A DNA stretch of 64,000 bases from an uncultured Gammaproteobacteria bacterium (GCA_964510885.1 CAZEDL010000007.1:13999-77998); one strand, 5' to 3'; numbered from the stretch's first letter, positions 3,723 through 25,242 are shown. Notes: generated from the letters alone by a model not told the origin. A program made the numbers and translations.

Positions 3723-3865
3723 ACAAAATAAAAAATCTGTGCTTCCACAGACTTGAACATATCGGTAAATCTCGACCAAAAAACGGCTAATGTTAGCGGT
3801 TTTAGATTACCTCGGCAGGATAATTAACCGGATGTTGCACCGGCCCTGCTGTCTATGGTGAAATG
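3723..3865 (-). promoter_or_regulatory. Structured ~140-nt 5' leader of rplJ-rplL (candidate L10 autoregulatory/attenuator region)
   Basis: It lies between the consensus promoter and the rplJ start. It contains an imperfect hairpin AAAACCGCTaacattAGCCGTTTTTT. L10 leaders are known autoregulatory targets. Confidence 0.4.
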
Positions 3866-3894
3866 AGTATAGACTAATTTTAAAAACCTGTCAA
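3866..3894 (-). promoter_or_regulatory. Sigma70-type promoter for rplJ-rplL
   Basis: On the minus strand, TTGACA-17nt-TATACT. Confidence 0.7.
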
Positions 3895-8694: not shown

Positions 8695-8777
8695 TGCCGG
8701 AGAGAGGACTCGAACCTCCATGGTCTTGCGACCGCTACCACCTCAAAGTAGTGCGTCTACCAATTTCGCCACCCCGG
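8695..8777 (-). tRNA. tRNA-Leu (anticodon GAG), class II with a long variable arm
   Basis: Reverse complement: GCCGGGGTGGCGAAATTGGTAGACGCACTACTTTGAGGTGGTAGCGGTCGCAAGACCATGGAGGTTCGAGTCCTCTCTCCGGCA. The cloverleaf folds with anticodon loop TTGAGGT, a GGTC/GACC variable stem and a TTCGAGT T-loop. Confidence 0.85.
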
Positions 8778-8791
8778 CTAATACTATACCT

Positions 8792-9556
8792 TTAAAACTT
8801 TCGATTCCGCCCCACAATCATTTGAGCCCGATAATTGGCCAGCTTGATCGTGAGCTTTACTTCTTTACTCAGCTTGCCGTCGGCTTCTACCGTAAACGGC
8901 TCCCGAGCCGTAATGGTCATATGCTCGAACGGAAAGATACTTGGCTCCTCATAGGTATACCCCCACCACCGCTTTTTTGTCAATGGTCGAAGGAAGGCTT
9001 CGAGCTTCCGATCCTGGGGATGAACCACCTGCTCAGCCTGCGGGGCTGTCGCTCTTGTCCAATAAAATGGCTTCAAATTACACACCACCACCTCCAGACG
9101 ATCTTTTGCGCTTACCACAAATCTCTCGTCATAACATACTTCCACCGGCGCCGGATGCACTCGGAGCTGACCGATAAAGTATCGCCCATTCATCCAACCG
9201 ACATCGAGTTCTTGTAGACGGCGTTTCGACAGCACATCGCAAGCATCAGCCCCAGTTGGGATACCAAGAATTTCAGCAATCGAGTTATTACCACCTACCG
9301 GCAAAAATCCAAAGGTACAGGGCAAATTGGCGCTGCGCGACAACACCGCACCGAACGTATCATCATTACCGGTGATCACGATCGTTTTAGCGCCACGCTT
9401 GATCTCTTCTTCAATAATCCCTTTTGCATCTGTATAATTATTGAGGCGAATAATTTTACCAGCGATCCCATGATCAGTTAACCGAACTTCGATCGCCTTC
9501 AGAATCGGCAAATATTTCTTATTACGTAAAAATTGGTCGTACAGGTAGACATACAT
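8792..9556 (-). CDS. Diacylglycerol/lipid kinase catalytic-domain protein (YegS/BmrU family)
   Basis: GAKTIVITGNDDTFGAVLSRSA...FLPVGGNNSIAEILGIPTGADACD. DAGK_cat-like motifs. Confidence 0.65.
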   Translation of the reverse strand: MYVYLYDQFLRNKKYLPILKAIEVRLTDHGIAGKIIRLNNYTDAKGIIEEEIKRGAKTIVITGNDDTFGAVLSRSANLPCTFGFLPVGGNNSIAEILGIPTGADACDVLSKRRLQELDVGWMNGRYFIGQLRVHPAPVEVCYDERFVVSAKDRLEVVVCNLKPFYWTRATAPQAEQVVHPQDRKLEAFLRPLTKKRWWGYTYEEPSIFPFEHMTITAREPFTVEADGKLSKEVKLTIKLANYRAQMIVGRNRKF

Positions 9557-9589: not shown

Positions 9590-10069
9590 TTAGACGAGTG
9601 GAGCGTCTTCCATCTTTTTCATCCCGCCGCTGCGCGGAGCCCGCGACCTACCCTCTGTTCCTTCGAGTCCCGGCATCGATACTTTTCCATATAGCAAAGC
9701 GCCAGCTTCAATCACCAGTACTCGCGCCTCGATATCACCGAGAATTTTAGCCGTCGCAGTGAGTTCAAGCGACTCCTTAACTTTTATATTTCCTTTGATC
9801 TCGCCGGCAATCTTAGCGCTACCGGCACGGACATTAGCCACAATTTTGGCTCCTGGTTCAACGAGTAAAAACCGGCTGGTAGTGACACTGCCCGACACCG
9901 AACCCTTCACCACAATATTGCCTTCCGAAGCAAAATCTCCCTCTACATTCACGGATGGTCCAACCACCGTTTCTACCTCATCAGGACGTTCCATCGACAT
10001 CATCATGTCATCATCAAGAAGCGGCATCGGCTCTGACAATGGTTTGGGGGGATTTTTTTGAAAAATCAT
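9590..10069 (-). CDS. Bactofilin-like polymer-forming cytoskeletal protein
   Basis: Beta-helical repeat region GPSVNVEGDFASEGNIVVKGSVSGSVTTSRFLLVEPGAKIVANVRAGSAKIAGEIKGNIKV (DUF583 pattern). Confidence 0.7.
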   Translation of the reverse strand: MIFQKNPPKPLSEPMPLLDDDMMMSMERPDEVETVVGPSVNVEGDFASEGNIVVKGSVSGSVTTSRFLLVEPGAKIVANVRAGSAKIAGEIKGNIKVKESLELTATAKILGDIEARVLVIEAGALLYGKVSMPGLEGTEGRSRAPRSGGMKKMEDAPLV

Positions 10070-10188
10070 ACTAGGTTAGAAGAAATAAAATTGATACAAA
10101 CAATCAATGGCAGACCAGAGTAGTATACTGCTCAAGACAAAAAATAACAAGCCGAAATAATTTTTTGCTTGGACACAAAAAGTATCTA

Positions 10189-11817
10189 TCACGCGGAAGG
10201 TGTCATTACTTCATTGCCAGGTTGTAAATCAAGCGGTAGCCACAGGCCAAATTCGCTACCTTTGCCAAGCCCTTTACTCTTAGCCCAAAATCTACCACTA
10301 TGTGCTTCAATGAACATGCGACATACGTATAACCCGAGGCCAGTACCATTTACATTAATCCCTTTCACATTCTCACCGCGATAAAATTTTTGGAAAAAAT
10401 TTACTTCGTCTTGACGGTTAAAACCAAGGCCATGATCTTGAACTCGGACGGTCACCCCAGCTGCATCATTCTCGACCACAACCGCAACAGCACCTGTGTC
10501 GGAATACTTAATTGCGTTATCGACAAAATTAAACACTACATGGCGAATCTTTTCTTCATCAAACACAAATGTCAAAGGCTGCAGCTTAGGCCGCTGAATT
10601 TTTAGCCCCTTCTGCTCGGCGCGATTTTCCAGTTCATCAATCACACTCTTTACCGTAGCGGATATATCAGCCTCTTTGAATACAAATTTAGTTCTCCCTT
10701 GTTCGATGCGGGTAATATCCAAAAATTCATCCACTAATTTCACGAGCCGCCCATTGCTTTCGTCGATATTATCTAGAACATCTTTCATTTTAGCGGTCAC
10801 TTTCCCATAGGCACCGTCATAAATTAATTCCACATACCCATTGATAATTGATAATGGCGTGCGCAGCTGATGCGATGCGATCGATAAAAACTCGGTCTTT
10901 TGGCGGTCGAGCATTTGCAGTCGGACATTTGCCTTCTCAAGTGCCGCCACCAATTTAGTGACTTCCAACCGTTCCTGAATCTCTTTCTTCACACTGGCTA
11001 CCAAAAAATACCCGAGCAAGGCAACTAGTATAGCGAACGACATTTTAAATAACAAAATCGACCATGATCCAGAAAACAAACCTTCGAGGAGCAGGATCAC
11101 GATCAAAATTGATACCACGCCTTCGGTGGCAATCACTTTGATATCAAACAGGCCATACTTAAGCACGGCCACCGCAGTCATGCTTAGGAATAAAAATGCA
11201 TATATCGGAGCAAACTTAACGAACGAATCGTTGTTAAAAAATAAAACCGGCACCATAATAGTCAGAATGGTTAAACCAAGCATCAGGGCACTGCCAACCA
11301 AGACACAGCCTAATTGTTGGCGCGCCACCCCATGCGAACCGCGTAATTTTTTAATGAGCTGATATATGGCACTCACTGTAAAAAAAGTTGTCAGGAGTGC
11401 AAACGGCATCATTCCCGGCCCTGGCTGAGCCTGCGCAAGGCCATTGTGCACTGCAATCCGAGTAAATGTAAAAGGCGACACCGTAATTCCCATCACCACA
11501 ATCGTTGCCATGATCGTCGCTATAAATTTATTACGGCTGAGCTGTATAGTCTTTTCCGGCAGTGTATGGGCAAGTAAAAACAAAAGCATACTCATAAGTG
11601 CTGCACTGCATACTGTCAGACGCGTCCACCACAGGTCAGCCACCGGTGTAACAGACAGATACGTAGCCACGAGCCAGGCAGACATCACTACTCCTAATGC
11701 AAAAAATAACCGATGAATAGCGGTTTTGCGGTCCTGATTCAAAACAAAACTAACTAATAGTACATTAAGGATGATGACCCCAAGCAGAATCAGCAAGCGT
11801 GTTGAAAACAGATCCAT
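10189..11817 (-). CDS. Sensor histidine kinase with an N-terminal multi-TM sensor domain
   Basis: H-box EFLSIASHQLRTPLSIINGYVELI. HATPase_c motifs NAIKYSDTGAVAVVV and GTGLGLYVCRMFIEAHSGRFWAKS. About 6-7 N-terminal TM helices. No adjacent response regulator. Confidence 0.85.
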   Translation of the reverse strand: MDLFSTRLLILLGVIILNVLLVSFVLNQDRKTAIHRLFFALGVVMSAWLVATYLSVTPVADLWWTRLTVCSAALMSMLLFLLAHTLPEKTIQLSRNKFIATIMATIVVMGITVSPFTFTRIAVHNGLAQAQPGPGMMPFALLTTFFTVSAIYQLIKKLRGSHGVARQQLGCVLVGSALMLGLTILTIMVPVLFFNNDSFVKFAPIYAFLFLSMTAVAVLKYGLFDIKVIATEGVVSILIVILLLEGLFSGSWSILLFKMSFAILVALLGYFLVASVKKEIQERLEVTKLVAALEKANVRLQMLDRQKTEFLSIASHQLRTPLSIINGYVELIYDGAYGKVTAKMKDVLDNIDESNGRLVKLVDEFLDITRIEQGRTKFVFKEADISATVKSVIDELENRAEQKGLKIQRPKLQPLTFVFDEEKIRHVVFNFVDNAIKYSDTGAVAVVVENDAAGVTVRVQDHGLGFNRQDEVNFFQKFYRGENVKGINVNGTGLGLYVCRMFIEAHSGRFWAKSKGLGKGSEFGLWLPLDLQPGNEVMTPSA

Positions 11818-11835: not shown

Positions 11836-12723
11836 TTACCCCAAGAAGGCCAGTAATTTTTCGGTAAAGAGCTTGCTCTGTTCGAGCGGCGGGACATGAC
11901 CGGTCTCCGGGAAAATGACAACGGTAGCATGCGGGAGATGTCTAAACTGCGGCTGGCTTTTAGCCAGTGGAACAGAAGTATCTTTTTCTCCCCAGATGAT
12001 CAAGACAGGTTGAGACACTCCTGGCAGCTCGACAGACAGATCAAGCTGTTTCTTCAAGCGGAAAAAAGAGGTTAAAGCATTAATAAATAAAATTGGATGA
12101 GATAGTTGATTTCGGAAAATACTTTCGTAAAAATATTCAAAAAACGCATCAGTCATTATATTTTTATCAACGAGCGGCTCTGCTAAAAACTCCTTCATAT
12201 GCTCGCGCGTCGGTGATAAGGGTTTGGCCGCTAAAAATTCGGCAAACGGACGCAGCGATACTAGACGATGTGAAACCGGCAAAAAACGACTAAACCCAAG
12301 TGAATCAACCAGTACAATTTTATCTACCATCACCGCCTTGCGGAGGGCCAAGCGCAGCGCAATCCACCCACCGAAAGAATGACCGATCACACTTACTGAC
12401 TGCAGGCCAAGCTGCTTGATACACTGCTCTACCACCTGAGCAAAATCTGTCTCTAGATCAAGGGTAGCCGAACCGATTTTGGTTGAACCGCCACATTCAG
12501 GCAAATCAAGCGCGTAGACAGTGTACTCGCGAGCTAAGTCAGCAATAGTAGTATACCACATTCCCCAGCCAATGTTGGCTCCGTGGATAAGTACCAATGG
12601 TTTTCCAGTCCCGGCTCGCACATAATTAATCTGACGGGCACCTACCTGTACCTGTTCTAACACGACCGGAACACCGAGTGATGCGACTAAGACTTCTTCA
12701 TGAGTCATAAAGAAAAATAGCAA
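11836..12723 (-). CDS. Alpha/beta-fold hydrolase
   Basis: Nucleophile elbow VIGHSFGGWIAL (GxSxG) plus HGxxxG-like LVLIHGANIGW. It is the first gene downstream in the five-gene operon. Confidence 0.75.
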   Translation of the reverse strand: MLFFFMTHEEVLVASLGVPVVLEQVQVGARQINYVRAGTGKPLVLIHGANIGWGMWYTTIADLAREYTVYALDLPECGGSTKIGSATLDLETDFAQVVEQCIKQLGLQSVSVIGHSFGGWIALRLALRKAVMVDKIVLVDSLGFSRFLPVSHRLVSLRPFAEFLAAKPLSPTREHMKEFLAEPLVDKNIMTDAFFEYFYESIFRNQLSHPILFINALTSFFRLKKQLDLSVELPGVSQPVLIIWGEKDTSVPLAKSQPQFRHLPHATVVIFPETGHVPPLEQSKLFTEKLLAFLG

Positions 12724-13815
12724 TTATAAACGAGTATTCAGACTAAAAATATCATCGAATGATACCAGCCAGGAGCCCTGCACCGGATCATTTAGCGCGA
12801 TCCGGCGCGCCAAATAGGCGCAGAATCCCGAAGCAATCGTTACCGTGCTCACCAGTTGCGGCCGACCAACTAGTGTTTTGCCGATCTCGGCCACCGAATC
12901 AAGCGCGCGCTGTGGAATATGAGAAACACCAGCCAGAGCCACGGCATATTTATGTTTATCAGTGGTGCTTAGATCAGGCGACGTCAAAATATCATTCGGC
13001 ACCTGCCCAGCCCGGCCATTAAAAAAAGGAGTATTCGGATCACAATCATACCGCTCCACATCCAAAATGACCCGATCGCCAATATTGGTGACCATAATCA
13101 CCGGTATGCGGGCCTCACGCGCCATTTGGCGCAAATATATTTTCATGGCAAAGCTGTCGATAATTTCAAAAATCAACTGGGGCTTTGGATCACCTAGGAC
13201 AAATTCAGATAACACCTCGGGCTGCAGCCCAGCGGTCATGAAACTGAGCTCCGCATACGGGTCAATTTCATATATTTGCTCAGCCACAATACCTATTTTG
13301 CGCTGGCCGATCTGATCAATCCGCGCCCGAATACGATTTAAATTAGAGGTTTCAAGTGTATCGAATTCCGCCAGTTTGATCTGTTTCGCCATTCCGCTAT
13401 AAGCCAAAGCCGTAGCCACTCCACTCCCAACCGATAGCCCCACCGCACCAACGCGAAATGCCCGAATCGTCTCTTGTTCCTCCGCTGTAATCAAATTTCG
13501 ATTGCGATTAGTGCGTAGCGCCAAATACTCGGCCTCAGTCACCGTATGCACCAATCGTCCGCTCCAGGGATAATAAATCCAATTCCCGAGAAGTTTGCCG
13601 TCCGTGCCATTTAGACACTGCAGAATAAAGTCTGCGCGCTTATTGGCAAAAGCCGGGTCATTAATAAGTTCGGCATGAGTAATCTCAAATAACTCTGCCA
13701 GCTGCCCCTGATACATATCCTGTTCTTTCCAGATTGGGTATGACGCTCTTAAACGAATGAGGTCGCTATCCGTGTAAGAACCTTCTGTCAAAATAATCGG
13801 TCGGGCGTGTTCCAT
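12724..13815 (-). CDS. ThiF/MoeB/E1-like adenylyltransferase with a ~110-aa N-terminal extension
   Basis: Rossmann GxGxxG VGAVGLSVGSGVATALAYSG. ThiF signature DFDTLETSNLNRIR. No CxxC. Its stop abuts the hydrolase start. Confidence 0.75.
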   Translation of the reverse strand: MEHARPIILTEGSYTDSDLIRLRASYPIWKEQDMYQGQLAELFEITHAELINDPAFANKRADFILQCLNGTDGKLLGNWIYYPWSGRLVHTVTEAEYLALRTNRNRNLITAEEQETIRAFRVGAVGLSVGSGVATALAYSGMAKQIKLAEFDTLETSNLNRIRARIDQIGQRKIGIVAEQIYEIDPYAELSFMTAGLQPEVLSEFVLGDPKPQLIFEIIDSFAMKIYLRQMAREARIPVIMVTNIGDRVILDVERYDCDPNTPFFNGRAGQVPNDILTSPDLSTTDKHKYAVALAGVSHIPQRALDSVAEIGKTLVGRPQLVSTVTIASGFCAYLARRIALNDPVQGSWLVSFDDIFSLNTRL

Positions 13816-13823
13816 AAAAAAAG

Positions 13824-15344
13824 TTACGTTTTCTTAGTCCATTTTTGTTTACCACCGGGTTTAAAATGCTCTGGATGCTGATACTGCCATAGCACCAAAC
13901 GCGGCACCACTTTATGGCGAATCCCCGGATCAGCATAAAAATCACGCCACTCTGAGTTTTCTTCATGGAGTGTCTTAAGCACCGACTGATGGATCTGCTC
14001 TTCGAGAGGCGGGGCTGGCGTGATCCCAAATTTAAGTTCAACATTAATTTCTAAAAATTGATTTTGCTTGTCATCATAAGGCGCGCGCATTGTAAATTTA
14101 GTGGTCAAAGCCGATTCGAGGCTCGGATGTTCGAGCGCCCGGCGGATACTTTCCGGATAAATATTTACACTATAGATACTAACCGTCAGATCTTTGCGCT
14201 CATAGACATGCACGAATGGCAAATTCCACAAACTTGATTGTAATCCTGCCTGCATAAATTCAGCACCAAGATCCACGCCTTCAGCCTGGCATGCGGACTG
14301 CACTTGTCCCAAGGTATGAATCCCACCTCGATCTTTTAAATCGTAGCGAATGAGTGGCAACCCACTCGCACTCGAGCACCATAGCTCACCTGCTATATCT
14401 TCAAAATAATAAAATTCTGGAATAAATTGGGCCAACGTCGGAAATTGCGACGGCGCCCCAAATAACGACTGATACAACGGTTCATGACGCCGCGCCAACC
14501 GGCGCAACAGAATGGTGGCCGGAGTTTCATGGGCCATAGTGCCCATATCAGCCGTCCCATAATGATTAAATGACCCCGTCCACTCGTCAGTAATGCCACA
14601 CTGCCGATTAATATAATCTCGGAACGTCTCACTGAATCCTTCGGCTGCAAAGAAAAACCGAATTGGGTACTCACTCCAGCAGAGGCCCTCCCGAGCCCCC
14701 TCATCAATCAAATCCTTAACAAGCGGCGGATACCCACCAATGATTACCTGGTCATACTGTTTGCCGAGACGGCGAATCGCTTTCAGTGCTTCTTCTTTAT
14801 ATGCGCCGGGCGTAATAATACTCAGTTTATAGGGCCGTTTATCAGCTATATATTTGAGCGCCTGATACATATACATGCCCCCGATCCATACTCCGAGTGC
14901 GAAACAATTAATAAACAACGTGCGCCGCCGGTGGATCTGCCAATACTCACGGAATAGTAATTCCGCTGTCAAAGCAAACTGATCATCTTGAGCTTGGCTG
15001 CGCGGAAAATAGAATGGTTCCCCGGTGGAACCGGAAGTAGAGGCAATCATGTGCGGTCGGTCAGCCAAAACCCCATCCCAACATAATTCGGGCAACGGAT
15101 AGCGCTGCAGGTAATTTTCTTTGCTGGTCGGCGGCAACTTTGTAAAATCATTCCAGGTGCGAATGCTGGCCGGAGAAATCGACTGCTGACGTAAAAAATC
15201 CTTATAGGCCGGTACCCGGGCAGCCATCGCCTGAAATAGGCGCAGCATGCGGCGCTGCCCGCGCTCTAACCAATACGTTGCGGGAGCTGATTTTAATTGA
15301 TGCAAAAATATATCCGGCAAAGACGGATCAGACAGCAGAGGCAT
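13824..15344 (-). CDS. Adenylate-forming enzyme of the PaaK/CapK/F390-synthetase-like (ANL) family
   Basis: AMP-binding P-loop MIASTSGSTGEPFYFPRS. 506 aa. The substrate cannot be called. Confidence 0.7.
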   Translation of the reverse strand: MPLLSDPSLPDIFLHQLKSAPATYWLERGQRRMLRLFQAMAARVPAYKDFLRQQSISPASIRTWNDFTKLPPTSKENYLQRYPLPELCWDGVLADRPHMIASTSGSTGEPFYFPRSQAQDDQFALTAELLFREYWQIHRRRTLFINCFALGVWIGGMYMYQALKYIADKRPYKLSIITPGAYKEEALKAIRRLGKQYDQVIIGGYPPLVKDLIDEGAREGLCWSEYPIRFFFAAEGFSETFRDYINRQCGITDEWTGSFNHYGTADMGTMAHETPATILLRRLARRHEPLYQSLFGAPSQFPTLAQFIPEFYYFEDIAGELWCSSASGLPLIRYDLKDRGGIHTLGQVQSACQAEGVDLGAEFMQAGLQSSLWNLPFVHVYERKDLTVSIYSVNIYPESIRRALEHPSLESALTTKFTMRAPYDDKQNQFLEINVELKFGITPAPPLEEQIHQSVLKTLHEENSEWRDFYADPGIRHKVVPRLVLWQYQHPEHFKPGGKQKWTKKT

Positions 15345-15345
15345 A

Positions 15346-16419
15346 CTAGGCAGACACTGGTCTAAGATTCAGAACAGAACCAACCAACCCATGGGCAATA
15401 TCATCAGCCACCACGATCGTCGGACGCCGCGTAGTTTGACTCCCACTGAGAACCGCTTCCATACGCGGCGAGATTTCCCGAATTTTCTGAAGAATCCGCT
15501 CCGGACTATGAATCTGGTTTTGATACTGATCAACCACACTGATGAGCCCACCAGCATTCACAATATAATCAGGCGCATATATGATACCACGCTCACTCAG
15601 CGCTTCTCCTATCTCTGCGGCCGCCAATTGATTATTAGCGGAACCAACTACCGCCCGACAATTCAACCGACTGATAGTGTGCTGATTCAAGATGCCCCCA
15701 AGTGCACAGGGCGAAAAAATATCAACTGGCTCGCTATAGATATCATCCGCAGACACCACGCGAACATTCGGAAATTCTTGTTTGATCGCCGCTAGTTTGT
15801 CTTGGTCAACATCGCTGACAGTAATCAATTGGGCCTCGGTATACAGCAGCTTGATCAATTCACCGCCAGTTTTCCCTGCCCCCTGAATTGCAAATCTACG
15901 TCCAGTCAATTCAGATGATCCGAAGAGGTGACGAAGGCACACTCTAATCGCCTGCAAGACCCCATAGGCTGTAAAATAGGCCGCATTGACTCCGTCGCCG
16001 ATAATAAATTCACTCGCACTGCGCATCGAATGCACATCATCGGGCCCCACTCCGATATCTGATCCAGTTACAAACCGCCCGCCTAGACGATTTACCTGTG
16101 CGCCATATGCTTTGAAATAAGCCTCTCGATCAACGATCCCTCCTGGCGGTTCACACAGCACTGCTTTGGCTCCTCCATAGGGCAAACCAGCCATAATTGA
16201 TTTATAAGACATTAATTTTGATAACCTGAGAGCATCGCGGAGCGCATCTTGAAGATGTGCATATGACCAGACGCGCGTAGCGCCGAGTGACGGCACATGT
16301 TCGCGCTCATTATAAATAGCAATAAATCCTCTTAATCCGACCGCTGGATCATCTAGTTCCACCACCGCGGTATGTCCACTAAACTCTGGAAAACTTTGAA
16401 TATCAGCTTGATGCAACAT
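15346..16419 (-). CDS. Glu/Leu/Phe/Val-type amino-acid dehydrogenase (Leu/Phe-DH-like)
   Basis: Catalytic-Lys motif KSIMAGLPYGGAKAVL. NAD(P) Rossmann motif FAIQGAGKTGGELIKLL. Confidence 0.8.
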   Translation of the reverse strand: MLHQADIQSFPEFSGHTAVVELDDPAVGLRGFIAIYNEREHVPSLGATRVWSYAHLQDALRDALRLSKLMSYKSIMAGLPYGGAKAVLCEPPGGIVDREAYFKAYGAQVNRLGGRFVTGSDIGVGPDDVHSMRSASEFIIGDGVNAAYFTAYGVLQAIRVCLRHLFGSSELTGRRFAIQGAGKTGGELIKLLYTEAQLITVSDVDQDKLAAIKQEFPNVRVVSADDIYSEPVDIFSPCALGGILNQHTISRLNCRAVVGSANNQLAAAEIGEALSERGIIYAPDYIVNAGGLISVVDQYQNQIHSPERILQKIREISPRMEAVLSGSQTTRRPTIVVADDIAHGLVGSVLNLRPVSA

Positions 16420-16516
16420 ATTTAAATAACCCCCTTATTATACCCCAATCAGATGGCTTCTCCTATGTGGGGTAGCGGGACCCCCTTAGGAATCAAGGTA
16501 TTAAATAATAAAATAA

Positions 16517-17599
16517 CTAATCTTTGGCCGACACTATCGCCTGTGCTGGTTGCAAGCGTGGACTATGCCCGAGCCGCCGGGCAGTTTTCCCCAATCGGCA
16601 CAAAACATACGGTTGATAACCATCTGGAACAAACTTTTTTACCTGCGGAGCGGCCGGATCATCCGGATGCGCAGAGGCGCTAACCGCCGTCTGAAAACCA
16701 GCGCGCTCGGCGCGCAAGAGGGTCTGCATAAGCAGGCGGCCAAGCTCAAGCTGCTGCCTATGGCCCCGGCCGCGCGCACTAAAAATCAATAGTATCGGTG
16801 TCTCGTCGCTCAATAATTTTTCCTCTGCACCTCTAATTTTTCGCATCACATTAGTGCGCCGGATCACACGAGATGCCAACAACGATAATAACAAAGGAAA
16901 ACCCATCGTAAACCCAGGCATACCATCGGGTGCTGACGTTAAATTATGCCGTTTATACCGGGCAATCTCAGAGCGAAAATCAGCCCCGTCAAACAACCGG
17001 ACGCGCCAATCCATAATAATCCGAGCCAATTCTTGCCGTCTGGCGCTATCACTCACCACATCAATCCGTGCTTCGTCAGTAGACGATGGCAAAATCTGAG
17101 CCAAAGTATCGGGGCTGATTGCGGACGATTCGTAGGGGGCGCGATTAGTTTCACGCCGGGGAATAGAAAAAATCAAATGATCATGTGGCACAGGCAGCGT
17201 GGGAGCACGATCCGCAGGCATCGCCTCCGTCAGAGTAAGTTCCGCCACTGCTTTGGATGATTCTCCCGCTGGGAAATAGCGCACAGTAAATCGCATCCCA
17301 AAATAATCCCCCGCGACGATGATATTTTCTAGCGCGGCCCCGAGCGCTATATACAACAGTCGGCCATCGCCATCTGCCACCGGTAACTCAATCGCGGGAT
17401 TTCTATAGATAGTAATAATTCGATCGGATACAGCAAATTGCCACGGCTGGCTATTATGGCTTGAGGGAGCCAACACCGCATAGTTCAACAAAAAAAACAA
17501 CTGGTCTGCAGTTGTTCCGGACGCCGGAAAATCAGCCGGGCTGATTGTCCAGGCTTTATAATTTGGTTTCGACCTACCAGCAGTAAAAAACAAGTTCAT
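16517..17599 (-). CDS. Double-domain nitroreductase-family FMN oxidoreductase (Acg/SagB-like architecture)
   Basis: LAPSSHNSQPWQF, the nitroreductase FMN-binding signature. 360 aa, consistent with two nitroreductase-like halves. Confidence 0.6.
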   Translation of the reverse strand: MNLFFTAGRSKPNYKAWTISPADFPASGTTADQLFFLLNYAVLAPSSHNSQPWQFAVSDRIITIYRNPAIELPVADGDGRLLYIALGAALENIIVAGDYFGMRFTVRYFPAGESSKAVAELTLTEAMPADRAPTLPVPHDHLIFSIPRRETNRAPYESSAISPDTLAQILPSSTDEARIDVVSDSARRQELARIIMDWRVRLFDGADFRSEIARYKRHNLTSAPDGMPGFTMGFPLLLSLLASRVIRRTNVMRKIRGAEEKLLSDETPILLIFSARGRGHRQQLELGRLLMQTLLRAERAGFQTAVSASAHPDDPAAPQVKKFVPDGYQPYVLCRLGKTARRLGHSPRLQPAQAIVSAKD

Positions 17600-17705: not shown

Positions 17706-19430
17706 TTACATTTCCTCCACCGGTTCAATGGTTAGTACAGTCAGAGCATTAATCAGCACCTGGCGCACCGCCATAGCCAGAGCCAACCGAGCCCTAGTCA
17801 CTTCGTGATCTTTAGAAATAATATCATGCTTGGCGTATAAATCGTTAAATGCTTGCGCCAGATCAAACGAATACTTAACTACCGCTGAAGGATTATATGC
17901 CGCCAGCGCTTTCTGCAATACTTCTTGGTACGAAGCGATCAAAATAAACAATTTTTTATCTTCGAGTGTTTCAAACTGTCGTACATCAACGGGCGTATTG
18001 GCAGTATTAAGTCCGGCAGATTTTTTAAGCAAACTATTAATACGCGCTACCACATATAACACATACGGCGCACTATACCCCTCGACACTCACTGCCTGAG
18101 TAACATCAAAACTAATATTCTTCCCCGCCTCGTGCTGCAACATGGTGAATTTAAGCACAGCCTGCGTAAGCTTATTAGCAAGAATAGTCACCCGGGCCGG
18201 AGTCCAATCAGGGTGCCGGGCGGTATTATCTTGGCGCAGCCGCTCAGCAATATCATCGCGCAGTTCTTCGTATAAAATCACATTACCAAGACGCGATGAC
18301 ATTTTTCCATCACTCCGGTTTACCAGCCCATACCCGATATGCGTCATTTTTTTATGAAACCCATACCGATCGAGCACAGCGAACAGTTGTTTGAAATAAA
18401 AATTTTGCTCAATGCCGGTAATATTAATACTTTCACTCGCATCTACTCGTTTGAATTTTTCTTCGGCCAGAGCCAAATCAGCTGTCATATACAGCCCAGC
18501 CCCAGTTCCTTTGCGCAGTAGCGCCACATCAAGGCCAGCATCCTTAAGGTCAATAATCACTGCCCCCTTATCCCCTACCTCAGCAATGCCTTTAGCCAAT
18601 AGCTCATCTACAATCTGCTGTCCGCGGGCTTTTACTTCACTCTCTAAAAACAACACGGTATGCCGGGCACTAAGTTCGCTGTGGAGTTCATCAAATCCCT
18701 CGAGGCTCCAGCCTCGAGTGGTTTCAAACAGCGGCCAAATCTCCGGATCATGGGCTTCTAATTTTTTCTGCAGTTCGTCAAGCTCCGCCTTCGTCTCTTC
18801 CTCATGCTCTTTTATATAAATACTCGCTTCGGCATAAATCTGCCCCAGCCACTTTTGCGTATTCTCGGGCGGCGCTTCATTACCATGAAATTTCTTGAGA
18901 CCCCACAGGCACTTCACCACATGCGCGCCAAAATCATTAATATAATTTACCGGCGTAATGTCATAGCCAGCGGCGCGATATAGCTGTACCAGGGTATTAC
19001 CAATGCAAACATTGCGCAAATGGCCAATATGAAATTCTTTGTGCGTATTTTGTGAGGGATATTCAATCACCACTTTGTGGCCAGCTCCAAGCGGCCAATG
19101 GCCATAATCGGCCCCCCGACTCAGCACCTCAGCCAACACCAATTCTGCAACCTTCGGCAGGCGCAGATAAAAATTAACATACGGCCCAGACATCGAAAAA
19201 TCTTGCACCAAATTGTCGCTCTCAATCTCCACTTTTTCTAGCATATTAAGCACGCGCTGCGCCGCTTCGGCCGGCTTAACCCCCCACGCTTTAGCGAGTG
19301 AAAAACACGGCAAACAAAAATCGCCCATATCAGCATTCGGCGGCACCGATAATCCTTTTACATCTTCAACGCCCGCTTTTTTAAGTAAGGCTTCAATGTG
19401 TTGTTTAAATGTATCGAGCATATAATACAC
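17706..19430 (-). CDS. argS: Arginyl-tRNA synthetase
   Basis: Class I HIGH motif KEFHIGHLRNVCIGN. ArgRS length and C-terminal DALR-like region. Confidence 0.9.
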   Translation of the reverse strand: MYYMLDTFKQHIEALLKKAGVEDVKGLSVPPNADMGDFCLPCFSLAKAWGVKPAEAAQRVLNMLEKVEIESDNLVQDFSMSGPYVNFYLRLPKVAELVLAEVLSRGADYGHWPLGAGHKVVIEYPSQNTHKEFHIGHLRNVCIGNTLVQLYRAAGYDITPVNYINDFGAHVVKCLWGLKKFHGNEAPPENTQKWLGQIYAEASIYIKEHEEETKAELDELQKKLEAHDPEIWPLFETTRGWSLEGFDELHSELSARHTVLFLESEVKARGQQIVDELLAKGIAEVGDKGAVIIDLKDAGLDVALLRKGTGAGLYMTADLALAEEKFKRVDASESINITGIEQNFYFKQLFAVLDRYGFHKKMTHIGYGLVNRSDGKMSSRLGNVILYEELRDDIAERLRQDNTARHPDWTPARVTILANKLTQAVLKFTMLQHEAGKNISFDVTQAVSVEGYSAPYVLYVVARINSLLKKSAGLNTANTPVDVRQFETLEDKKLFILIASYQEVLQKALAAYNPSAVVKYSFDLAQAFNDLYAKHDIISKDHEVTRARLALAMAVRQVLINALTVLTIEPVEEM

Positions 19431-19432
19431 GG

Positions 19433-19457
19433 TGTCATTCCCGCGCAGGCGGGAATC
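19433..19457. repeat. Family-1 palindromic repeat unit (TGTCATTCCCGCGCAGGCGGGAATC)
   Basis: ATTCCC-N8-GGGAAT hairpin with GTCA/TGAC flanks. It recurs at 25429-25582, 36348-36417, 37201-37224, 42792-42874 and 62210-62219. Confidence 0.8.
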
Positions 19458-19467
19458 CAGTCGCTTA

Positions 19468-20673
19468 CTAAATAATTTTCACAAAAAACCGATTCCCCTT
19501 CTGCACCACATCTCCAGGTTTCACTACCGCTTCAATCGTTTCGACTTTATCATCATTGATCTTAACACCACCTTGAGTAATCACCTGCCGCGCTTCAGAT
19601 TTACTTTTTACCATCTTGCTTTCCACCAACACCGTAACAATATCCATTTTCGACGGCGACAGATTAGGGATAGAATCCGGCACTTCTTTTTGCTGAATCA
19701 CCTCGACAAATCGGGCTTCTCCAGCCTTAGCAGCCGCCTCACCCAAAAATTGCTTGGTAATTTCATAGGCCAAACGCAGTTTAGCATCCCGGGGATTTTT
19801 CGCGCTCGCAATCTCCTCAACCGCGTCCATCGGCACGCGGGTGCAGAGTTCAAACCCAGGCCGGATCATCCCGTCGCTCCAGCGCATCACTTTGCCAAAC
19901 ATATCTTCCGGAGTATCCGACAAGGCAATCATATTCCCTTCGCTCTTACCCATTTTCTTACCACTGTCGTCAGCCAATAATTTTCCAGTCAGAACAAATT
20001 TTTCCTTATGTTTCATTTCTTTCATCAACGCGCGGCCGGCGAGCATGTTAAATGTCTGGTCGTTGCCGCCAATCTCACCGTCCACATCCATCGCCACACT
20101 GTCATAACCCTGCATCAATGGATATAAAAATTCATGCAAAAAAATAGGCTTTTCTTCTGTCACTCTTTTTTCAAACATATCCCGCTCCAGCATCTGCTGC
20201 ACCGTAAAATGACTGGATAATTCCACCACATCTGCAAACGTCATCTTAGCGAGCCATTCACTGTTGAATTTAATCTCTGCGGGATTGCTACCGCCAAAAT
20301 CAAGCACCGCTTCGGCTTGCTGTTTATACGCCGCACAATTCTTAAGCACTTCGTCACGCGTTAATTTTTTGCGCGCCGCACCTTTGTCAGTCGGATCACC
20401 AATCATGCCGGTAAAATCACCGATGAGCACAATCACCTTATGCCCCAAATCCTGAAACTCGCGCAACTTTAAGAGTGTGATGCCATGCCCAATATGGAGC
20501 GTATCAGCCGTAGGATCATAGCCAGTGTATAACACGAGCTGTTTACCTTCGTTCAATCGCGCCATTAAAAATTCCTTTTTAGGATAAATATTTTCTACGC
20601 CACGCGTTAAGAGAGTTTCAATTTTTTGTGAATCGTGTGATACGGACATATTGATATTAAGATAAACGAGCAA
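19468..20673 (-). CDS. tyrS: Tyrosyl-tRNA synthetase (with C-terminal S4 domain)
   Basis: TGYDPTADTLHIGHG (HIGH) and KKMGKSEGN (KMSKS). Start ambiguity: TTG at 20673 with a GAGG-like SD, or ATG at 20649. Confidence 0.9.
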   Translation of the reverse strand: MLVYLNINMSVSHDSQKIETLLTRGVENIYPKKEFLMARLNEGKQLVLYTGYDPTADTLHIGHGITLLKLREFQDLGHKVIVLIGDFTGMIGDPTDKGAARKKLTRDEVLKNCAAYKQQAEAVLDFGGSNPAEIKFNSEWLAKMTFADVVELSSHFTVQQMLERDMFEKRVTEEKPIFLHEFLYPLMQGYDSVAMDVDGEIGGNDQTFNMLAGRALMKEMKHKEKFVLTGKLLADDSGKKMGKSEGNMIALSDTPEDMFGKVMRWSDGMIRPGFELCTRVPMDAVEEIASAKNPRDAKLRLAYEITKQFLGEAAAKAGEARFVEVIQQKEVPDSIPNLSPSKMDIVTVLVESKMVKSKSEARQVITQGGVKINDDKVETIEAVVKPGDVVQKGNRFFVKII

Positions 20674-23413
20674 GGTCAGCCTCGAGTGTCGCTAATTTTT
20701 GCTCCGCCTCCGCTAATTTTTTCTTTTCGCTGTCCACCAACTTCGCCGGCGCATGCGAAGTAAAATCCTCATTCGCCAGTTTAGCCTGTTGGGCAGCAAC
20801 ATACGGTTTTACTTTGGCAATCTCCTTACTAAGGCGCTCTTTTTCTTTGGCCTTATCAACCCCCTCGCTCACATTAGCAAATACCATCACATCACCTACC
20901 GCAAACCCCACCGCTCCGTCTGGTTTTATGATGTCAGATTCAATGGTAAGTGTAGCGATGCCGGTGCGTAAATTCTGTATCAGCGATTTTTCTTGAGACA
21001 AGAGAGCAATTTTTCCTTTGGCGCTGATAGATACACTTATTTTTCGCGCCGGTTCCACTTTATATTCAGCGCGCAAAGCGCGTACTGACACCACAATATC
21101 ACGAATCAAATTAAAATCATCCAAAACCGCGGCATCTTGTTTCAGCTGCTCCAGAGCCGGCCATTTTTGAACTATTAACAACTGATCAGTGCCATACACT
21201 TCACTCCAAATCGCTTCGGTCACAAACGGCATGAACGGATGCCACAACTTCAAAATACTGTTGAGGGCATAATTCAGAATATCTGATTTATCACCTTCGA
21301 TTTTGGCGATCTCTAAATACCAATCCGCGAGCTGATCCCAAGTAAACGTACGCAAGAGCTCTCCCGCTGCCGAAAACTGATACTGATCAAGCGAAGTGCT
21401 CACGAGTTTCACCGTATCACTGAGCTGGCTCAAAAACCAACGGTCACTCAAGGTTTTAGCCGTCGGCTCGGCTATATCCGCCTTAGGATTATCAATCGTC
21501 AGCAGCATAAACCGGCAGATATTCCACAGCTTATTGGTAAAATTCCGGAACCCGGCAATCTTCTCTTCCGACAACTTAAGATCATTCCCCGGCCCGTTAC
21601 CAATGAGCAGCGACAACCGCGTGGCATCCGCCCCAAACTTCGCAATCATGTCGAGCGGATCGATAATGTTATCAAGCGTCTTACTCATCTTCCGCCCCTG
21701 TTCATCACGCACTAGCCCGTGCAAATACACCGTCTTAAAAGGCACATCCCCAATCGCATACGTAGTCATGAGTATCATACGCGCCACCCAGAAGAAAATA
21801 ATATCATAACCAGTCTCAAGCACACTGGTCGGATGAAACCGCGCAAAATCGGGTGAATTTTTCAACCACTCTTCGAGAGAAGAATAATTTTCAAAGCTAT
21901 CTTTAGATAATAAAGTAGAAAAAGTCCACAAGCCAGACGAAAACCAGGTATCAAGTGTATCGGGATCTTGCTCCAGAGCATTCCCACACTGCGGGCAAAC
22001 AACAATTTCATCAACAGACACAAGCGGCTGCGCACATTTCGGATTTCCCTGTTTACAGTAGTAAACAGGAATCTGATGCCCAAACCAAATCTGGCGACTG
22101 ATGCACCAATCGCGTAAATTATCTATCCAATGAAAATACGTTTTCTCAAATCGATCCGGAATAATCTTAATCTGCTCATTACGCACCACCGTCTGCATCA
22201 ACTCTTTCAGACTTACCATCTGCCCGTCTGTAACCCCCTTAATTCTTAGGTCTTTATTCTTAAATTCAAACGGTTTATTCACATCCACAAACCACTGCAC
22301 CTTCGGCAGCGGCTCCACCACATCTTTGAACCGATCAGACGTCCCCACATTCTGAGCAATATCTTCTTCTTTGATTAATAGATCCTGATCTTTCAGATAC
22401 GCCACAAATTTCTGCTGCGCTTCTTTAATCGTGAGCCTGGCATAGGCTGCTCCGCCACTGCGCATCATCTTGCCGTCTTCACCAATCACCTGAATCAGGC
22501 CGATCGGATCCGCCGCCAATCTACAGCGCTCATACATGTCAAAGTCAACCATGCTGTGTGCTGGCGTCACCCCAAGCGCACCGGTGCCAAAACTATCATC
22601 CACCCCGGCGTCCCCAATCACTTTTATAGTCAGCGTGTGGCCGGCCTGTCCCACATTGTTCACCGTAAACACCTGACCAATATACTGCTTCCACTTTCCT
22701 TCCGGATGCACAGCTACCGCGGTATCGCCGAGCTTGGTTTCGGGGCGGGTGGTAGCAATCGGAATCGGAAACTCATGGCTATATTTAAACGTATACAATT
22801 TCGCGGGCCGCTCCACATGCACCAATTCATCATCACTACAGGTTGATTGCCCTTTCACCGACCAATTCACCACCCGATAGCCTCGGTAAATGAGCCCGTC
22901 ATCATACATTTTTTTAAACACGAGTCGCACCGCCCGGCTGCGCACGGCATCAAGCGTATATGCTTCGCGGCTCCAATCAAGCGATGCGCCCATGCGTTTG
23001 CATTGATTCACGATCGTATCATGACTGTCTTTGGCAAATTGATTGACGCGTTCTAAAAATGCATCACGCCCTAATTCTTCCTTGGGCTTCGTGAAACCCT
23101 CATTTTTTATCAGTAGTGCTTCCACTTTTGATTCGGTAGCTATGGCCGCATGATCCGTCCCCGGCACCCAAAGCGCAGCTTCACCCTTCATCCGATGATA
23201 ACGAGCCAGCACATCTTCGATCGCCAGCATGGCTGCATGACCCATATGAAGCGTACCCGTTACATTTGGGGGCGGCAGCACCATGGAAAAATAAGAGGTT
23301 ACATTATCTTGCGCCGAATTATTTTGCGGTCCGAAAAAACCGCTCTGCTCGGAACGTTCATATACCTTGTTTTCATATTGTTTTGGGTCGTAGGCCTTTG
23401 GGAGCTCTTTCAT
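20657..23413 (-). CDS. valS: Valyl-tRNA synthetase
   Basis: PPPNVTGTLHMGHA (HIGH), GRKMSKTLDN (KMSKS), C-terminal coiled coil. 918 aa. Confidence 0.95.
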   Translation of the reverse strand: MKELPKAYDPKQYENKVYERSEQSGFFGPQNNSAQDNVTSYFSMVLPPPNVTGTLHMGHAAMLAIEDVLARYHRMKGEAALWVPGTDHAAIATESKVEALLIKNEGFTKPKEELGRDAFLERVNQFAKDSHDTIVNQCKRMGASLDWSREAYTLDAVRSRAVRLVFKKMYDDGLIYRGYRVVNWSVKGQSTCSDDELVHVERPAKLYTFKYSHEFPIPIATTRPETKLGDTAVAVHPEGKWKQYIGQVFTVNNVGQAGHTLTIKVIGDAGVDDSFGTGALGVTPAHSMVDFDMYERCRLAADPIGLIQVIGEDGKMMRSGGAAYARLTIKEAQQKFVAYLKDQDLLIKEEDIAQNVGTSDRFKDVVEPLPKVQWFVDVNKPFEFKNKDLRIKGVTDGQMVSLKELMQTVVRNEQIKIIPDRFEKTYFHWIDNLRDWCISRQIWFGHQIPVYYCKQGNPKCAQPLVSVDEIVVCPQCGNALEQDPDTLDTWFSSGLWTFSTLLSKDSFENYSSLEEWLKNSPDFARFHPTSVLETGYDIIFFWVARMILMTTYAIGDVPFKTVYLHGLVRDEQGRKMSKTLDNIIDPLDMIAKFGADATRLSLLIGNGPGNDLKLSEEKIAGFRNFTNKLWNICRFMLLTIDNPKADIAEPTAKTLSDRWFLSQLSDTVKLVSTSLDQYQFSAAGELLRTFTWDQLADWYLEIAKIEGDKSDILNYALNSILKLWHPFMPFVTEAIWSEVYGTDQLLIVQKWPALEQLKQDAAVLDDFNLIRDIVVSVRALRAEYKVEPARKISVSISAKGKIALLSQEKSLIQNLRTGIATLTIESDIIKPDGAVGFAVGDVMVFANVSEGVDKAKEKERLSKEIAKVKPYVAAQQAKLANEDFTSHAPAKLVDSEKKKLAEAEQKLATLEADLARLS

Positions 23414-24027: not shown

Positions 24028-25242
24028 GTGCCAAAACCGTACGACGAGAAACTGCAAAAGTTCAGAACCACACAGGAGGCGGATATCCGCCAAGGAAGGC
24101 TCATACGGCTCATTCCTCAGAAGGAGGAGCGCATCAAAACAACGCTCCAAGACCTCAGGAACCAGAGTGATCGCCGGGTCGCTATCCTGGCAGGTAAGCT
24201 CCTGGCAGAGCGAACCGCCCTCTCAACCCAAGACGCCCAGTTTGAGGCTGTGAAACTCGTGGGGGAGGAGATCTGGGCCGAAGGCGAAGAGGCCAAGGCC
24301 GAGGCGGAGAGGTGGCTCCAGGGCCAGCTCACCACCCCTCTTAACGTCCACGAAACAGCAGAGCTGACACGTCGAAGCAGAGAAGAGGAAGAGCGTCTGG
24401 AGGCCATTTACCAGGCCGAGATCTCGGCCGAACAGGCCCGCCTCGCCGAGGAGCCACCAAGCCGGACCACGGTGCCGGAGCGCACAATGGATCCGACCAT
24501 GTTCCACGGCAGGGCTCTCCCGGTCCTCGAGACGGACGATATGGAGGAGGCGGGCCCGGCTCCAACCGCGCTGGACACCCTTCCCCCGCAGGAAAGAGAG
24601 CTGGCCTCGGTCATTGTGGACCAGGCTGGGATCGAATCCCGGGTCCACCCCCTCAGCCCGCACCGTCCTCCAACGACGGCGCACCGGATGATCGGGGAAG
24701 CGCCCCACCCCGCCAACCAGACTCCCATCGAGCCACTGGCGGCCACACCCAGGCGTGCGGCCACCCAGAACGAGGTCGATACCCTGGTGCGACGAGGCCC
24801 CGCTCCCAAGGAGCGATGGCACCTGAACGATAAGCAAAAATCCGTGCTATGGGTTTTGATCTTGGTGGGAGTGCTGGTGGGTGGAGGAGGATGCCTTGCG
24901 TGGCTTGTCAACAAGCTATCCACCTCGGAGCGTCCCGCCGCCGCCCGGGTGCTGAACCAAACCGCTCCCGAAATCACGCCCGCCATGCAGCGGGCGATCG
25001 ACAAGGCGGTGGCCACTGAGGTCGCCGCCAAGACAGCGGAGTGGGAGAAGAGATTCACCCTGCGCAGCGAGGTCCGCGCGCTCATCATGAGCGAGGTGAG
25101 CACCCAGCTCCCCCCGGAGCAGCCAGCGCCCCCGCGCCCCCGGCCGCTGCGCCCCCGGCCGCTGCCCGACTTCGACAAGGGCCGCCAGCCTGACAGGCCC
25201 GGCCTCCGGTACCCGTTTACCACCACGAGGCCACGCCGCTAA
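24028..25242 (+). CDS. Hypothetical Pro-rich single-pass membrane protein encoded in a high-GC island (404 aa)
   Basis: GTG start with a perfect AAGGAGG SD 6 nt upstream. Charged N-terminal region, TM helix VLWVLILVGVLVGGGGCLAWLV, PRPRPLRPRPLP tail. ~65% GC with AGA/AGG Arg codons, unlike neighbouring genes. Confidence 0.6.
   Translation: MPKPYDEKLQKFRTTQEADIRQGRLIRLIPQKEERIKTTLQDLRNQSDRRVAILAGKLLAERTALSTQDAQFEAVKLVGEEIWAEGEEAKAEAERWLQGQLTTPLNVHETAELTRRSREEEERLEAIYQAEISAEQARLAEEPPSRTTVPERTMDPTMFHGRALPVLETDDMEEAGPAPTALDTLPPQERELASVIVDQAGIESRVHPLSPHRPPTTAHRMIGEAPHPANQTPIEPLAATPRRAATQNEVDTLVRRGPAPKERWHLNDKQKSVLWVLILVGVLVGGGGCLAWLVNKLSTSERPAAARVLNQTAPEITPAMQRAIDKAVATEVAAKTAEWEKRFTLRSEVRALIMSEVSTQLPPEQPAPPRPRPLRPRPLPDFDKGRQPDRPGLRYPFTTTRPRR

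Follow-up and report, generated by a model that had tools for sequence, protein, structure and literature searches.

A conserved operon of Patescibacteria with a predicted role in oxazolone-type metabolism and a linked seven-helix histidine kinase

We report a six-gene operon that is conserved across hundreds of genomes of ultra-small Patescibacteria (Candidate Phyla Radiation, CPR). It was found in a 64-kb window, that is, the whole stretch of 64,000 nucleotides that was analyzed (contig CAZEDL010000007.1, positions 13999-77998, assembly GCA_964510885.1, labeled as an uncultured Gammaproteobacteria bacterium). Based on our data, the operon may serve to convert an aromatic amino acid to an oxazolone (azlactone)-type metabolite with no N-acyl-amino-acid synthase involved, and a sensor kinase with seven membrane helices is genetically linked to it. 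We estimate the probability of this reading at about 0.5. The genes, with the short names used below, are the following.

17599..16517, minus strand: NTR, 360 aa, a single-chain, two-lobed nitroreductase-superfamily protein that binds flavin mononucleotide (FMN), FDO group of flavin oxidases, Acg-type
16420..16516, minus strand: intergenic spacer of 97 nt, with a TATAAT-like box and an AAGGGGG Shine-Dalgarno sequence ahead of the aaDH start
16419..15346, minus strand: aaDH, 357 aa, an NAD(P) amino-acid dehydrogenase of the Leu/Phe/Trp type with a PheDH-like pocket (PF02812 and PF00208)
15344..13824, minus strand: LIG, 506 aa, a PaaK-fold adenylate-forming enzyme of the ANL superfamily
13815..12724, minus strand: ThiF, 363 aa, an E1-like protein of the Rv1355c/TrzS type with a winged-helix-like N-terminal domain (about residues 1-100)
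12723..11836, minus strand: ABH, 295 aa from a TTG start, an alpha/beta serine hydrolase with a GHSFGG nucleophile elbow and a C-terminal GH
10189..11817, minus strand: HK, a HisKA_7TM-HisKA-HATPase_c histidine kinase (PF16927, PF00512 and PF02518)

An earlier reading of this DNA, made from the sequence alone, had described five packed minus-strand genes ending at 11836. All five open reading frames (ORFs) are present and tightly packed, with intergenic gaps of 97, 1, 8 and 0 nt; the last gap becomes 15 nt if ABH begins at the ATG at 12708, 15 nt downstream, which an independent gene call on an identical contig prefers and which gives a protein of 290 aa. The unit does not end there, however, because HK follows ABH after a gap of only 18 nt and belongs to the same operon, of which it is a sixth and near-universal member that the sequence-only reading had missed. 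Nearly all genes of the window lie on the minus strand, so the shared direction of the cluster genes means little. It is the conservation of the set in 80 loci, together with many natural fusions, that gives the cluster a significance above chance.

Conservation was assessed by a pattern scan of one genome per species, which turned up relatives of LIG in at least 269 species genomes. The best 80 loci were fetched, and the 54 of them having at least 1.5 kb on both sides are here called complete. ThiF is present in all 54 complete loci, the kinase in 49, NTR in 45, aaDH in 35, a stand-alone receiver in 29, an aminotransferase in 16 and ABH, which is an accessory part, in 15. LIG adjoins ThiF in 78 of the 80 loci. 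The most frequent gene order is aaDH-LIG-ThiF-NTR-HK, and the smallest clusters are made up of the aminotransferase, LIG, ThiF and the kinase only. Gene order, a point on which the sequence-only reading had let its proposal depend, is therefore kept in dozens of genomes. The same reading had considered the cluster unexpected in a reduced genome; it turned out to be widespread in, and typical of, the reduced genomes of Patescibacteria. No paper tying oxazolone, ThiF or nitroreductase terms to Patescibacteria was found in the literature consulted, and a paper on Saccharibacteria genetics is silent on these genes.

Most of the 80 loci are labeled as Patescibacteria, the rest being "uncultured Gammaproteobacteria" or plain "bacterium". 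Judging from the shared Patescibacteria-type synteny, the labels pointing elsewhere look wrong. Doubtful labels of metagenome-assembled genomes include "uncultured Gammaproteobacteria", "Kapabacteria" and "Thermoplasmatales archaeon" (L003, L004, L019, L024 and others; L083/L084; L082). The last of these loci had been considered as an archaeal ThiF-NTR-7TM cluster devoid of LIG, but masked runs of N hide its LIG and kinase core and it was not used as evidence.

Natural fusions join the enzymes in many combinations: aaDH+LIG (L006, P0149, P0266), LIG+ThiF, ThiF+LIG, ThiF+NTR (in eight syntenic loci), ThiF+ABH (L010, L011), NTR+ABH (L027, L050, L081), aaDH+NTR, LIG+NTR and, as a triple fusion of 1242 aa (P0317), aaDH+LIG+ThiF. 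NTR is found fused to ThiF, ABH, aaDH or LIG in related loci. The flanking genes of the triple-fusion locus L138 are identical in kind to those of the window. Such fusions indicate that the enzymes act in one pathway.

The first enzyme of this pathway would be one that deaminates an amino acid. The best matches of aaDH are the Trp dehydrogenase ScyB (255 bits), the Leu dehydrogenase 6acf (222 bits) and the Trp dehydrogenase 5b37 (205 bits), and its catalytic motifs GGAK, K and D are intact. In the substrate pocket, the site of LeuDH Ala113 holds a Gly in 47 of 47 orthologues and that of Val291 a Leu in 32 of 40; these are presumably the sites that separate Phe from Leu dehydrogenases. Clustering of the unassigned neighbours revealed, in 20 loci, a class-I aminotransferase placed divergently at the cluster start. 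Thirty-seven loci have aaDH only, 18 have the aminotransferase only, none has both and four have neither. Three more loci lacking both carry, directly upstream of LIG, an aromatic ammonia-lyase that matches best to FlxA, the tyrosine ammonia-lyase of flexirubin synthesis (582 bits). By their family assignments, then, three unrelated enzymes alternate at this place, each predicted to yield a carboxylic acid from an amino acid by taking off its alpha-amino group. The ammonia-lyase reaction is taken to run in practice in the deaminating direction only.

The interchangeable deaminating enzymes, the pocket of aaDH and the precedent of a tyrosine ammonia-lyase (TAL) working with a PaaK-like ligase, discussed below, suggest an aryl acid as the product of the first enzyme and as the substrate that LIG activates. 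The acid would be an arylpyruvate, or coumarate in the lyase variant. In one locus of this variant (L141), a methyltransferase dependent on S-adenosylmethionine (9763-10461) lies between ThiF and NTR, which echoes the methyltransferases of the planctomycete N-acyl-dehydrotyrosine clusters (PMC12479983).

LIG has no Pfam match and gives weak matches to PaaK, F390 and FlxY models. Its AlphaFold2 (AF2) model (pLDDT 87.7) has the PaaK fold, with PaaK1 (2y27) as the top Foldseek match (E 5e-25, TM-score 0.69/0.80, 17% identity), followed by BT_0428, the 2-hydroxyisobutyryl-CoA ligase HCL, ClxA and the amide-bond synthetase McbA. The motifs SGSTG (P-loop), YG.xD, Y.L.D.G, R.D and the C-terminal K499 are all invariant in 26 homologues, the residues concerned being S104-G108, Y262/G263/D266, Y334/D338/G340, R383/D385 and K499. 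We take them to be the ANL P-loop (A3), the YGxxE/D motif (A5), the ribose-binding Asp (A7), the hinge (A8) and the catalytic Lys (A10). LIG retains all adenylation motifs of the PaaK, ClxA and McbA enzymes; it differs from them in its low identity (17-18%), in being about 80 residues longer and in having no paa genes nearby. LIG belongs to a small and clearly bounded family, for which 545 clusters were counted at E<=1e-30 among 1.84 billion representatives. In line with the sequence-only reading, LIG is not a true phenylacetate-CoA ligase, since it scores 31.7 bits with TIGR02155 (cutoff 646) and 32.8 bits with NF041878 (cutoff 700) and there is no paa cluster around it.

An N-acyl-amino-acid synthase is part of every oxazolone or N-acyl-dehydrotyrosine cluster described so far. 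In the window, no synthase of the OxzA/TyzA/TrzA/NasY type was found between the arginyl-tRNA synthetase gene and the kinase. Clustering of unassigned neighbours in the 80 loci, where only the neighbourhoods were searched, yielded the receiver, the aminotransferase and lineage-specific housekeeping families, and no synthase-like family. LIG appears to take the place of this hallmark enzyme, an arrangement that is new. Some ANL/PaaK-like enzymes work without coenzyme A (CoA), among them ClxA and McbA, the structural neighbours of LIG. Since the synthase is absent and ClxA and McbA are among the fold neighbours, the simplest reading is that LIG forms the amide itself, its acyl-adenylate reacting straight away with an amino acid at the amino group.

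The ThiF and NTR proteins match the two halves of the Rv1355c/TrzS family of "oxazolone synthetases", in which a ThiF domain is fused to a flavin oxidase, and would correspond to them in function. Residues 4-346 of ThiF align with positions 11-327 of the Rv1355c family profile NF005901 (E 7e-82, 276 bits); the score falls below the cutoff of 476 because ThiF is only half of a fusion family. NTR matches the C-terminal half of the same profile (positions 373-591, E 8e-20, 71 bits), and a syntenic ThiF+NTR fusion (L045) reaches 534 bits over its full length, above the curated cutoff. The sequence-only reading had pointed to an unusual N-terminal extension of about 110 aa in ThiF. The extension is real, PF00899 spanning residues 103-242 only, and it is well folded in the AF2 model (pLDDT 90.2). 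It is not unusual, however, since the match begins at profile position 11, which makes the extension a family trait.

The nearest solved sequence to ThiF is TcdA, the dehydratase that forms the oxazolone of ct6A. The GxGxxG region, D152, the NLNR motif and D220 (within IIDSF) of ThiF are invariant, D220 in 26 homologues, and D220 aligns with the ATP-site Asp of TcdA and MoeB (AIDS in TcdA). From the published description of TrzS rather than from an alignment, D220 would be the counterpart of TrzS D217. The top structural match of the ThiF model is AclA (PDB 9egb), which we could not trace in the literature consulted. In line with the sequence-only reading, ThiF is not a canonical ThiF or MoeB: it reaches 63 bits with the best ThiF model (cutoff 159) and 44 bits with the MoeB model (cutoff 266), with no ThiS or MoaD nearby. 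The protein has two Cys only and no CxxC zinc site, and a short-ORF search found no small beta-grasp (ThiS/MoaD-like) ORF conserved in the cluster loci.

The best family match of NTR is Acg (NF047509, 185 bits against a cutoff of 199, residues 37-353), and its sole solved relative is MsAcg of Mycobacterium smegmatis (2ymv). In related loci, the slot of NTR is taken by either of two kinds of flavin oxidase, an Acg-type (L016, L040, L070, where ThiF fusions score above the NF047509 cutoff) and an Rv1355c-C-terminal type (L045, L074, L141). Both kinds are found fused to ThiF, which suggests that they are functionally equivalent. Proteins of the Acg/Rv3131/Rv3127 group, FMN-binding products of the mycobacterial DosR regulon, stand alone and have no established reaction, whereas the NTR of the window is embedded in a biosynthetic operon.

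Taken in the order of the commonest gene arrangement, with which the aaDH-LIG-ThiF triple fusion agrees, the enzymes might act as follows. aaDH would strip the alpha-amino group from an aromatic amino acid, leaving an aryl carboxylic acid of the arylpyruvate or coumarate type; elsewhere this step would fall to the class-I aminotransferase or to the tyrosine-ammonia-lyase-like enzyme. LIG would adenylate the aryl acid and most likely transfer it to the amino group of an amino acid, giving an N-acyl amino acid. ThiF, like TrzS, TyzB and OxzB, would adenylate the amino-acid carboxylate and close the ring of a 5(4H)-oxazolone, and NTR, as an FMN oxidase, would put in the double bond between C-alpha and C-beta. 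ABH, where present, may open or transfer the reactive azlactone ring. HK, presumably co-transcribed, would either sense the hydrophobic product or control the operon. An amino-acid-derived small-molecule pathway with two distinct adenylating chemistries had already been suggested by the sequence-only reading, and our results support it.

Oxazolone synthesis by a ThiF protein and a flavin oxidase has been described. For TrzS, TyzB/TyzC and OxzB, there is biochemical proof that N-acyl aromatic amino acids are cyclised and desaturated (PMC12856293, PMC10404671, bioRxiv 10.1101/2020.06.11.147165). In M. tuberculosis and M. smegmatis, the N-acyltransferase TrzA and the ThiF-FDO fusion TrzS (Rv1355c) together make N-acyl tryptazolones (PMC12856293). 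The ThiF of the window corresponds to the N-terminal half of the TrzS family, including its N-terminal region and the conserved ATP-site Asp, and NTR to the C-terminal half. Unlike in TrzAS, the two parts are separate genes with two others between them, a TrzA-type acyltransferase is absent, NTR is closer to the Acg group, and a PaaK-like ligase, a deaminating enzyme, a hydrolase and a kinase are added.

The TyzACB system of M. tuberculosis, in which TyzA is the synthase, TyzB a ThiF-like cyclase and TyzC a stand-alone FDO, produces N-acyl tyrazolones (PMC10404671). It resembles the CPR cluster in having a separate cyclase and flavin oxidase in one cluster and in acting on an aromatic amino-acid derivative, as the CPR enzymes are predicted to do. 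However, its hallmark TyzA, an acyl-CoA-using acyltransferase similar to acyl-homoserine lactone synthases, is absent from the cluster of the window, and neither a kinase nor a dehydrogenase nor a PaaK-like ligase belongs to the tyz cluster. OxzB of Pseudoalteromonas rubra was the first example of the kind, and its homologues from proteobacteria are typically preceded by oxzA (bioRxiv 10.1101/2020.06.11.147165; reviewed in PMC12596934). A ThiF-like domain is likewise coupled to a nitroreductase domain there, and the chemistry would be shared, an N-acyl aromatic amino acid being cyclised with ATP and oxidised, whereas the CPR cluster has an ATP-dependent ligase in place of oxzA, plus further genes. 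The same ThiF/oxidase pair occurs in the planctomycete N-acyl-dehydrotyrosine clusters (PMC12479983). Judged by its sequences, the CPR operon would be of the same kind as the Oxz, Tyz and Trz systems, yet without one of their defining features, the synthase. The gene combination had been thought undescribed; this holds for LIG in the place of the synthase, for the three alternating deaminating enzymes ahead of it and for the kinase, which are new, but not for the association of ThiF with a nitroreductase.

A precedent for the first two steps is found in the initiation of flexirubin synthesis, where FlxA, a tyrosine ammonia-lyase, and FlxY, a 4-coumarate-CoA ligase, are a proven TAL/PaaK-like pair (PMC3992019). 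In both cases an aromatic amino acid would be deaminated and the aryl acid activated by a PaaK-like ligase; the FlxA-like lyase upstream of LIG and the weak match of LIG to FlxY add to the likeness. FlxY, on the other hand, feeds a polyketide-type aryl-polyene pathway through CoA, whereas LIG goes with a ThiF cyclase, to which it is fused in some loci, and the CPR cluster has neither a polyketide synthase nor an acyl carrier protein.

The kinase is a near-constant partner of the enzymes. Its domains are intact, with the motifs SHQLRTPL, DNAIKYS, DHGLGF and GTGLGL, and a full-length homologue (query 7-530, membrane domain included) lies directly downstream of the cluster in 49 of the 54 complete loci. 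Some of these cluster-linked homologues bear an extra GAF domain. The seven-transmembrane (7TM) domain alone was used for a metagenome scan with a 6-sequence alignment, a 22-sequence alignment being too diverse. All matches of at least 38% identity that have flanking sequence adjoin the cluster (one keeps only ABH upstream), and most of those of 31% identity or less lie away from it. In several loci (L007, L011, L029, L045, L085-L090) the cluster-linked kinase is tandemly duplicated, with two or three copies.

Other membrane proteins accompany distant versions of the cluster. L142 (398-4664) and L143 (3271-4680) hold genes of about 470 aa, single or up to three in tandem, with HisKA_7TM and no recognisable kinase domain, and these 7TM-only paralogues lie just upstream of aaDH-ThiF-LIG-HK. 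In a Marinamargulisbacteria locus from outside Patescibacteria (L140, QFBS01000002.1), LIG-ThiF-ABH is divergent to genes for a seven-helix SpoIIE/PP2C phosphatase, found instead of the kinase, an RsbW-like protein of 196 aa and NTR. The membrane domain of this phosphatase has no detectable homology to that of the kinase (hhalign probability 0.1%), so that the likeness is an analogy only. As the enzymes are paired again and again with signalling proteins that cross the membrane several times, the product may well be sensed. agrBDCA and lantibiotic autoinduction offer an analogy, without homology, in which biosynthesis and a multi-pass membrane kinase share one operon, often with a receiver alongside; the CPR cluster differs in having no peptide precursor, and its receivers have no DNA-binding output domain.

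It is tempting to go further and consider the operon a self-contained small-molecule signalling module, in which an oxazolone or N-acyl-dehydroamino-acid signal is detected by the 7TM kinase and the stand-alone receiver, although we regard this as rather unlikely. If it were so, these ultra-small episymbionts would own a private channel for quorum sensing or host sensing, and the module would provide the first ligand class for HisKA_7TM sensors, whose signal is not known.

Several observations weigh against the oxazolone proposal or against a sensory role of the kinase. Known flavin oxidases of the NTR type use O2, and many Patescibacteria live without oxygen. The NTR of the window is nearer to the Acg/Rv3131 group (185 bits) than to the C-terminal half of TrzS (71 bits), or, in the groups of PMC10404671, nearer to FDO-B (Acg) than to FDO-A (TrzS/TyzC), and no Acg-type enzyme has a proven reaction. 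Of the 54 complete loci, 9 lack NTR and 39 lack ABH, so that the end product must differ between loci. It could also be that LIG is an ordinary CoA ligase, in which case the enzyme forming the amide would be absent or the substrate of ThiF would not be an N-acyl amino acid, and a 2-oxoacyl or cinnamoyl group might lead ring closure to a different heterocycle. Additionally, searches with CheY and OmpR models and with a profile built from the neighbouring receivers found no response regulator in the window, and the stand-alone receivers of other loci have no output domain. The linkage of the kinase could be regulatory, or mere inherited gene order.

This last point leads to a different view of HK, in which it is the regulator of the operon or only a neighbour, and the metabolite is a pigment, an antioxidant, an envelope lipid head-group or a reactive acyl donor. 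We hold this to be quite possible, if short of probable. Kinases often adjoin the operons that they regulate, distant HisKA_7TM kinases lie away from the cluster, the window is devoid of a receiver gene, and the tyz genes of M. tuberculosis were tied to resistance to oxidative stress and not to signalling (PMC10404671). Nevertheless, HK remains the last gene of the operon in nearly all complete loci, which come from Parcubacteria, Microgenomates, Saccharibacteria and Doudnabacteria, although the other genes have been reshuffled; the nearest 7TM orthologues with flanking sequence are all linked to the cluster, and extra 7TM-only paralogues and an unrelated 7TM-PP2C protein go with its distant versions. 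Doubt may also fall on the product itself. LIG and ThiF might join the deaminated aryl acid to an amino acid, with ThiF then closing another structure, such as an enol-lactone or morpholinedione from an N-(2-oxoacyl) amino acid or a diketopiperazine-like ring desaturated as by AlbA, or making an ester or amide to another nucleophile. ThiF-like enzymes do make succinimides, thiolactones, indolylamides and more rings by the same adenylate chemistry (PMC12596934), and relatives of the nitroreductase also desaturate diketopiperazines (bioRxiv 10.1101/2020.06.11.147165). Moreover, the implied arylpyruvoyl or coumaroyl group is unlike the fatty acyl group of the known oxazolones, and some loci have no NTR. 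The full-length match of ThiF to the TrzS family, N-terminal domain included, the syntenic fusion that passes the curated equivalog cutoff and the oxazolone-forming activity of TcdA, the nearest solved relative, argue in the opposite direction and make another ring doubtful.

Two further explanations would leave no place for an oxazolone. In a pathway for peptides that are made by the ribosome and modified after translation (RiPPs), the winged-helix N-terminal domain of ThiF would bind a precursor, as an RRE or peptide clamp, and the enzyme would modify its C-terminus as MccB and PaaA do, with the other proteins as tailoring enzymes. The predicted topology of this domain is indeed winged-helix-like, and PaaA (5ff5) and MccB (3h9j) align with ThiF over about 340 columns including it, at a root-mean-square deviation of about 10 Å. 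However, in 81 loci no ORF of 18-90 aa is conserved in the cluster or within 400 bp of it, the recurring short ORFs being only antisense shadows of aminotransferase, receiver and bactofilin genes. The same N-terminal region is shared by the TrzS family, whose substrate is a small molecule (PMC12856293), and the three interchangeable deaminating enzymes and the aaDH-LIG-ThiF fusions point to free amino acids as substrates. A peptide pathway thus seems very improbable, and the microcin-C-like and TOMM-like (thiazole/oxazole-modified microcin) variants put forward in the sequence-only reading found no support. It is more improbable still that unrelated housekeeping genes simply lie together here, for amino-acid catabolism, activation of a sulphur carrier by a ThiF/MoeB protein and a generic nitroreductase activity. 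Every family involved has housekeeping members and the window is dense in housekeeping genes, with three aminoacyl-tRNA synthetase genes directly upstream. Against this, the pairwise fusions and the triple one contradict a chance association, the synteny is kept in 80 loci, and no ThiS/MoaD, paa or 2-oxoacid oxidoreductase gene lies within the cluster. The profile searches also left all housekeeping models far below their cutoffs, which is in line with the sequence-only reading.

If correct, the oxazolone reading would extend the ThiF-flavin-oxidase chemistry, known from proteobacteria, mycobacteria and planctomycetes and always together with an N-acyl-amino-acid synthase, to a new super-phylum, with an ATP-dependent ligase instead of the synthase and aromatic instead of fatty acyl groups. 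The tiny genomes of Patescibacteria retain almost no biosynthesis, and a five-enzyme pathway kept in many of their lineages would be important to their lifestyle. It also offers a testable context for the Acg-type nitroreductases, whose reaction in dormant M. tuberculosis is not known. Since the enzymes are soluble and can be expressed in Escherichia coli, the proposal is directly testable.

Some features of the operon and of the window deserve mention. ABH is an Abhydrolase_1 protein (PF00561, E 1e-27) and falls below the cutoff of every NCBIfam model. The 97-nt gap between NTR and aaDH reads GGGGTATAATAAGGGGGTTATTTAAATATG. The TATAAT-like box and the AAGGGGG sequence that had been noticed ahead of the aaDH ATG are there; promoter-like matches are, however, not enriched in the region from 8.5 to 24 kb (27 against 24.8 in shuffled sequence in a consensus scan), nor are terminator-like matches (19 against 16.7). 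As read from the sequence, an internal promoter ahead of aaDH is possible.

The kinase gene is followed by a bactofilin gene (9590..10069, minus strand) and a DAGK_cat lipid-kinase-like gene (8792..9556, minus strand). This HK-bactofilin-DAGK order recurs in the closest relatives (L083, L138, L139), even where the aminoacyl-tRNA synthetase genes upstream are different, and may represent lineage synteny or a further functional link. Directly upstream of the cluster lie the genes of the arginyl-, tyrosyl- and valyl-tRNA synthetases (ArgRS, TyrRS and ValRS; 17706-23413, minus strand), and the order TyrRS-ArgRS-cluster is kept in L083/L084 and L138. Farther away, the G+C content rises to 0.60, against about 0.47, at 24028-25242 (plus strand, with overlapping ORFs), where a 404-aa ORF of low complexity, rich in Pro, Ala, Glu and Arg, has one hydrophobic segment, a short 15-nt tandem repeat and no Pfam match. 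Rfam models found no rRNA in the window; they detected a ribosomal protein L10 leader and two tRNAs, at 3720-3876 (minus strand), 8695-8778 (minus strand) and 53741-53813 (plus strand).

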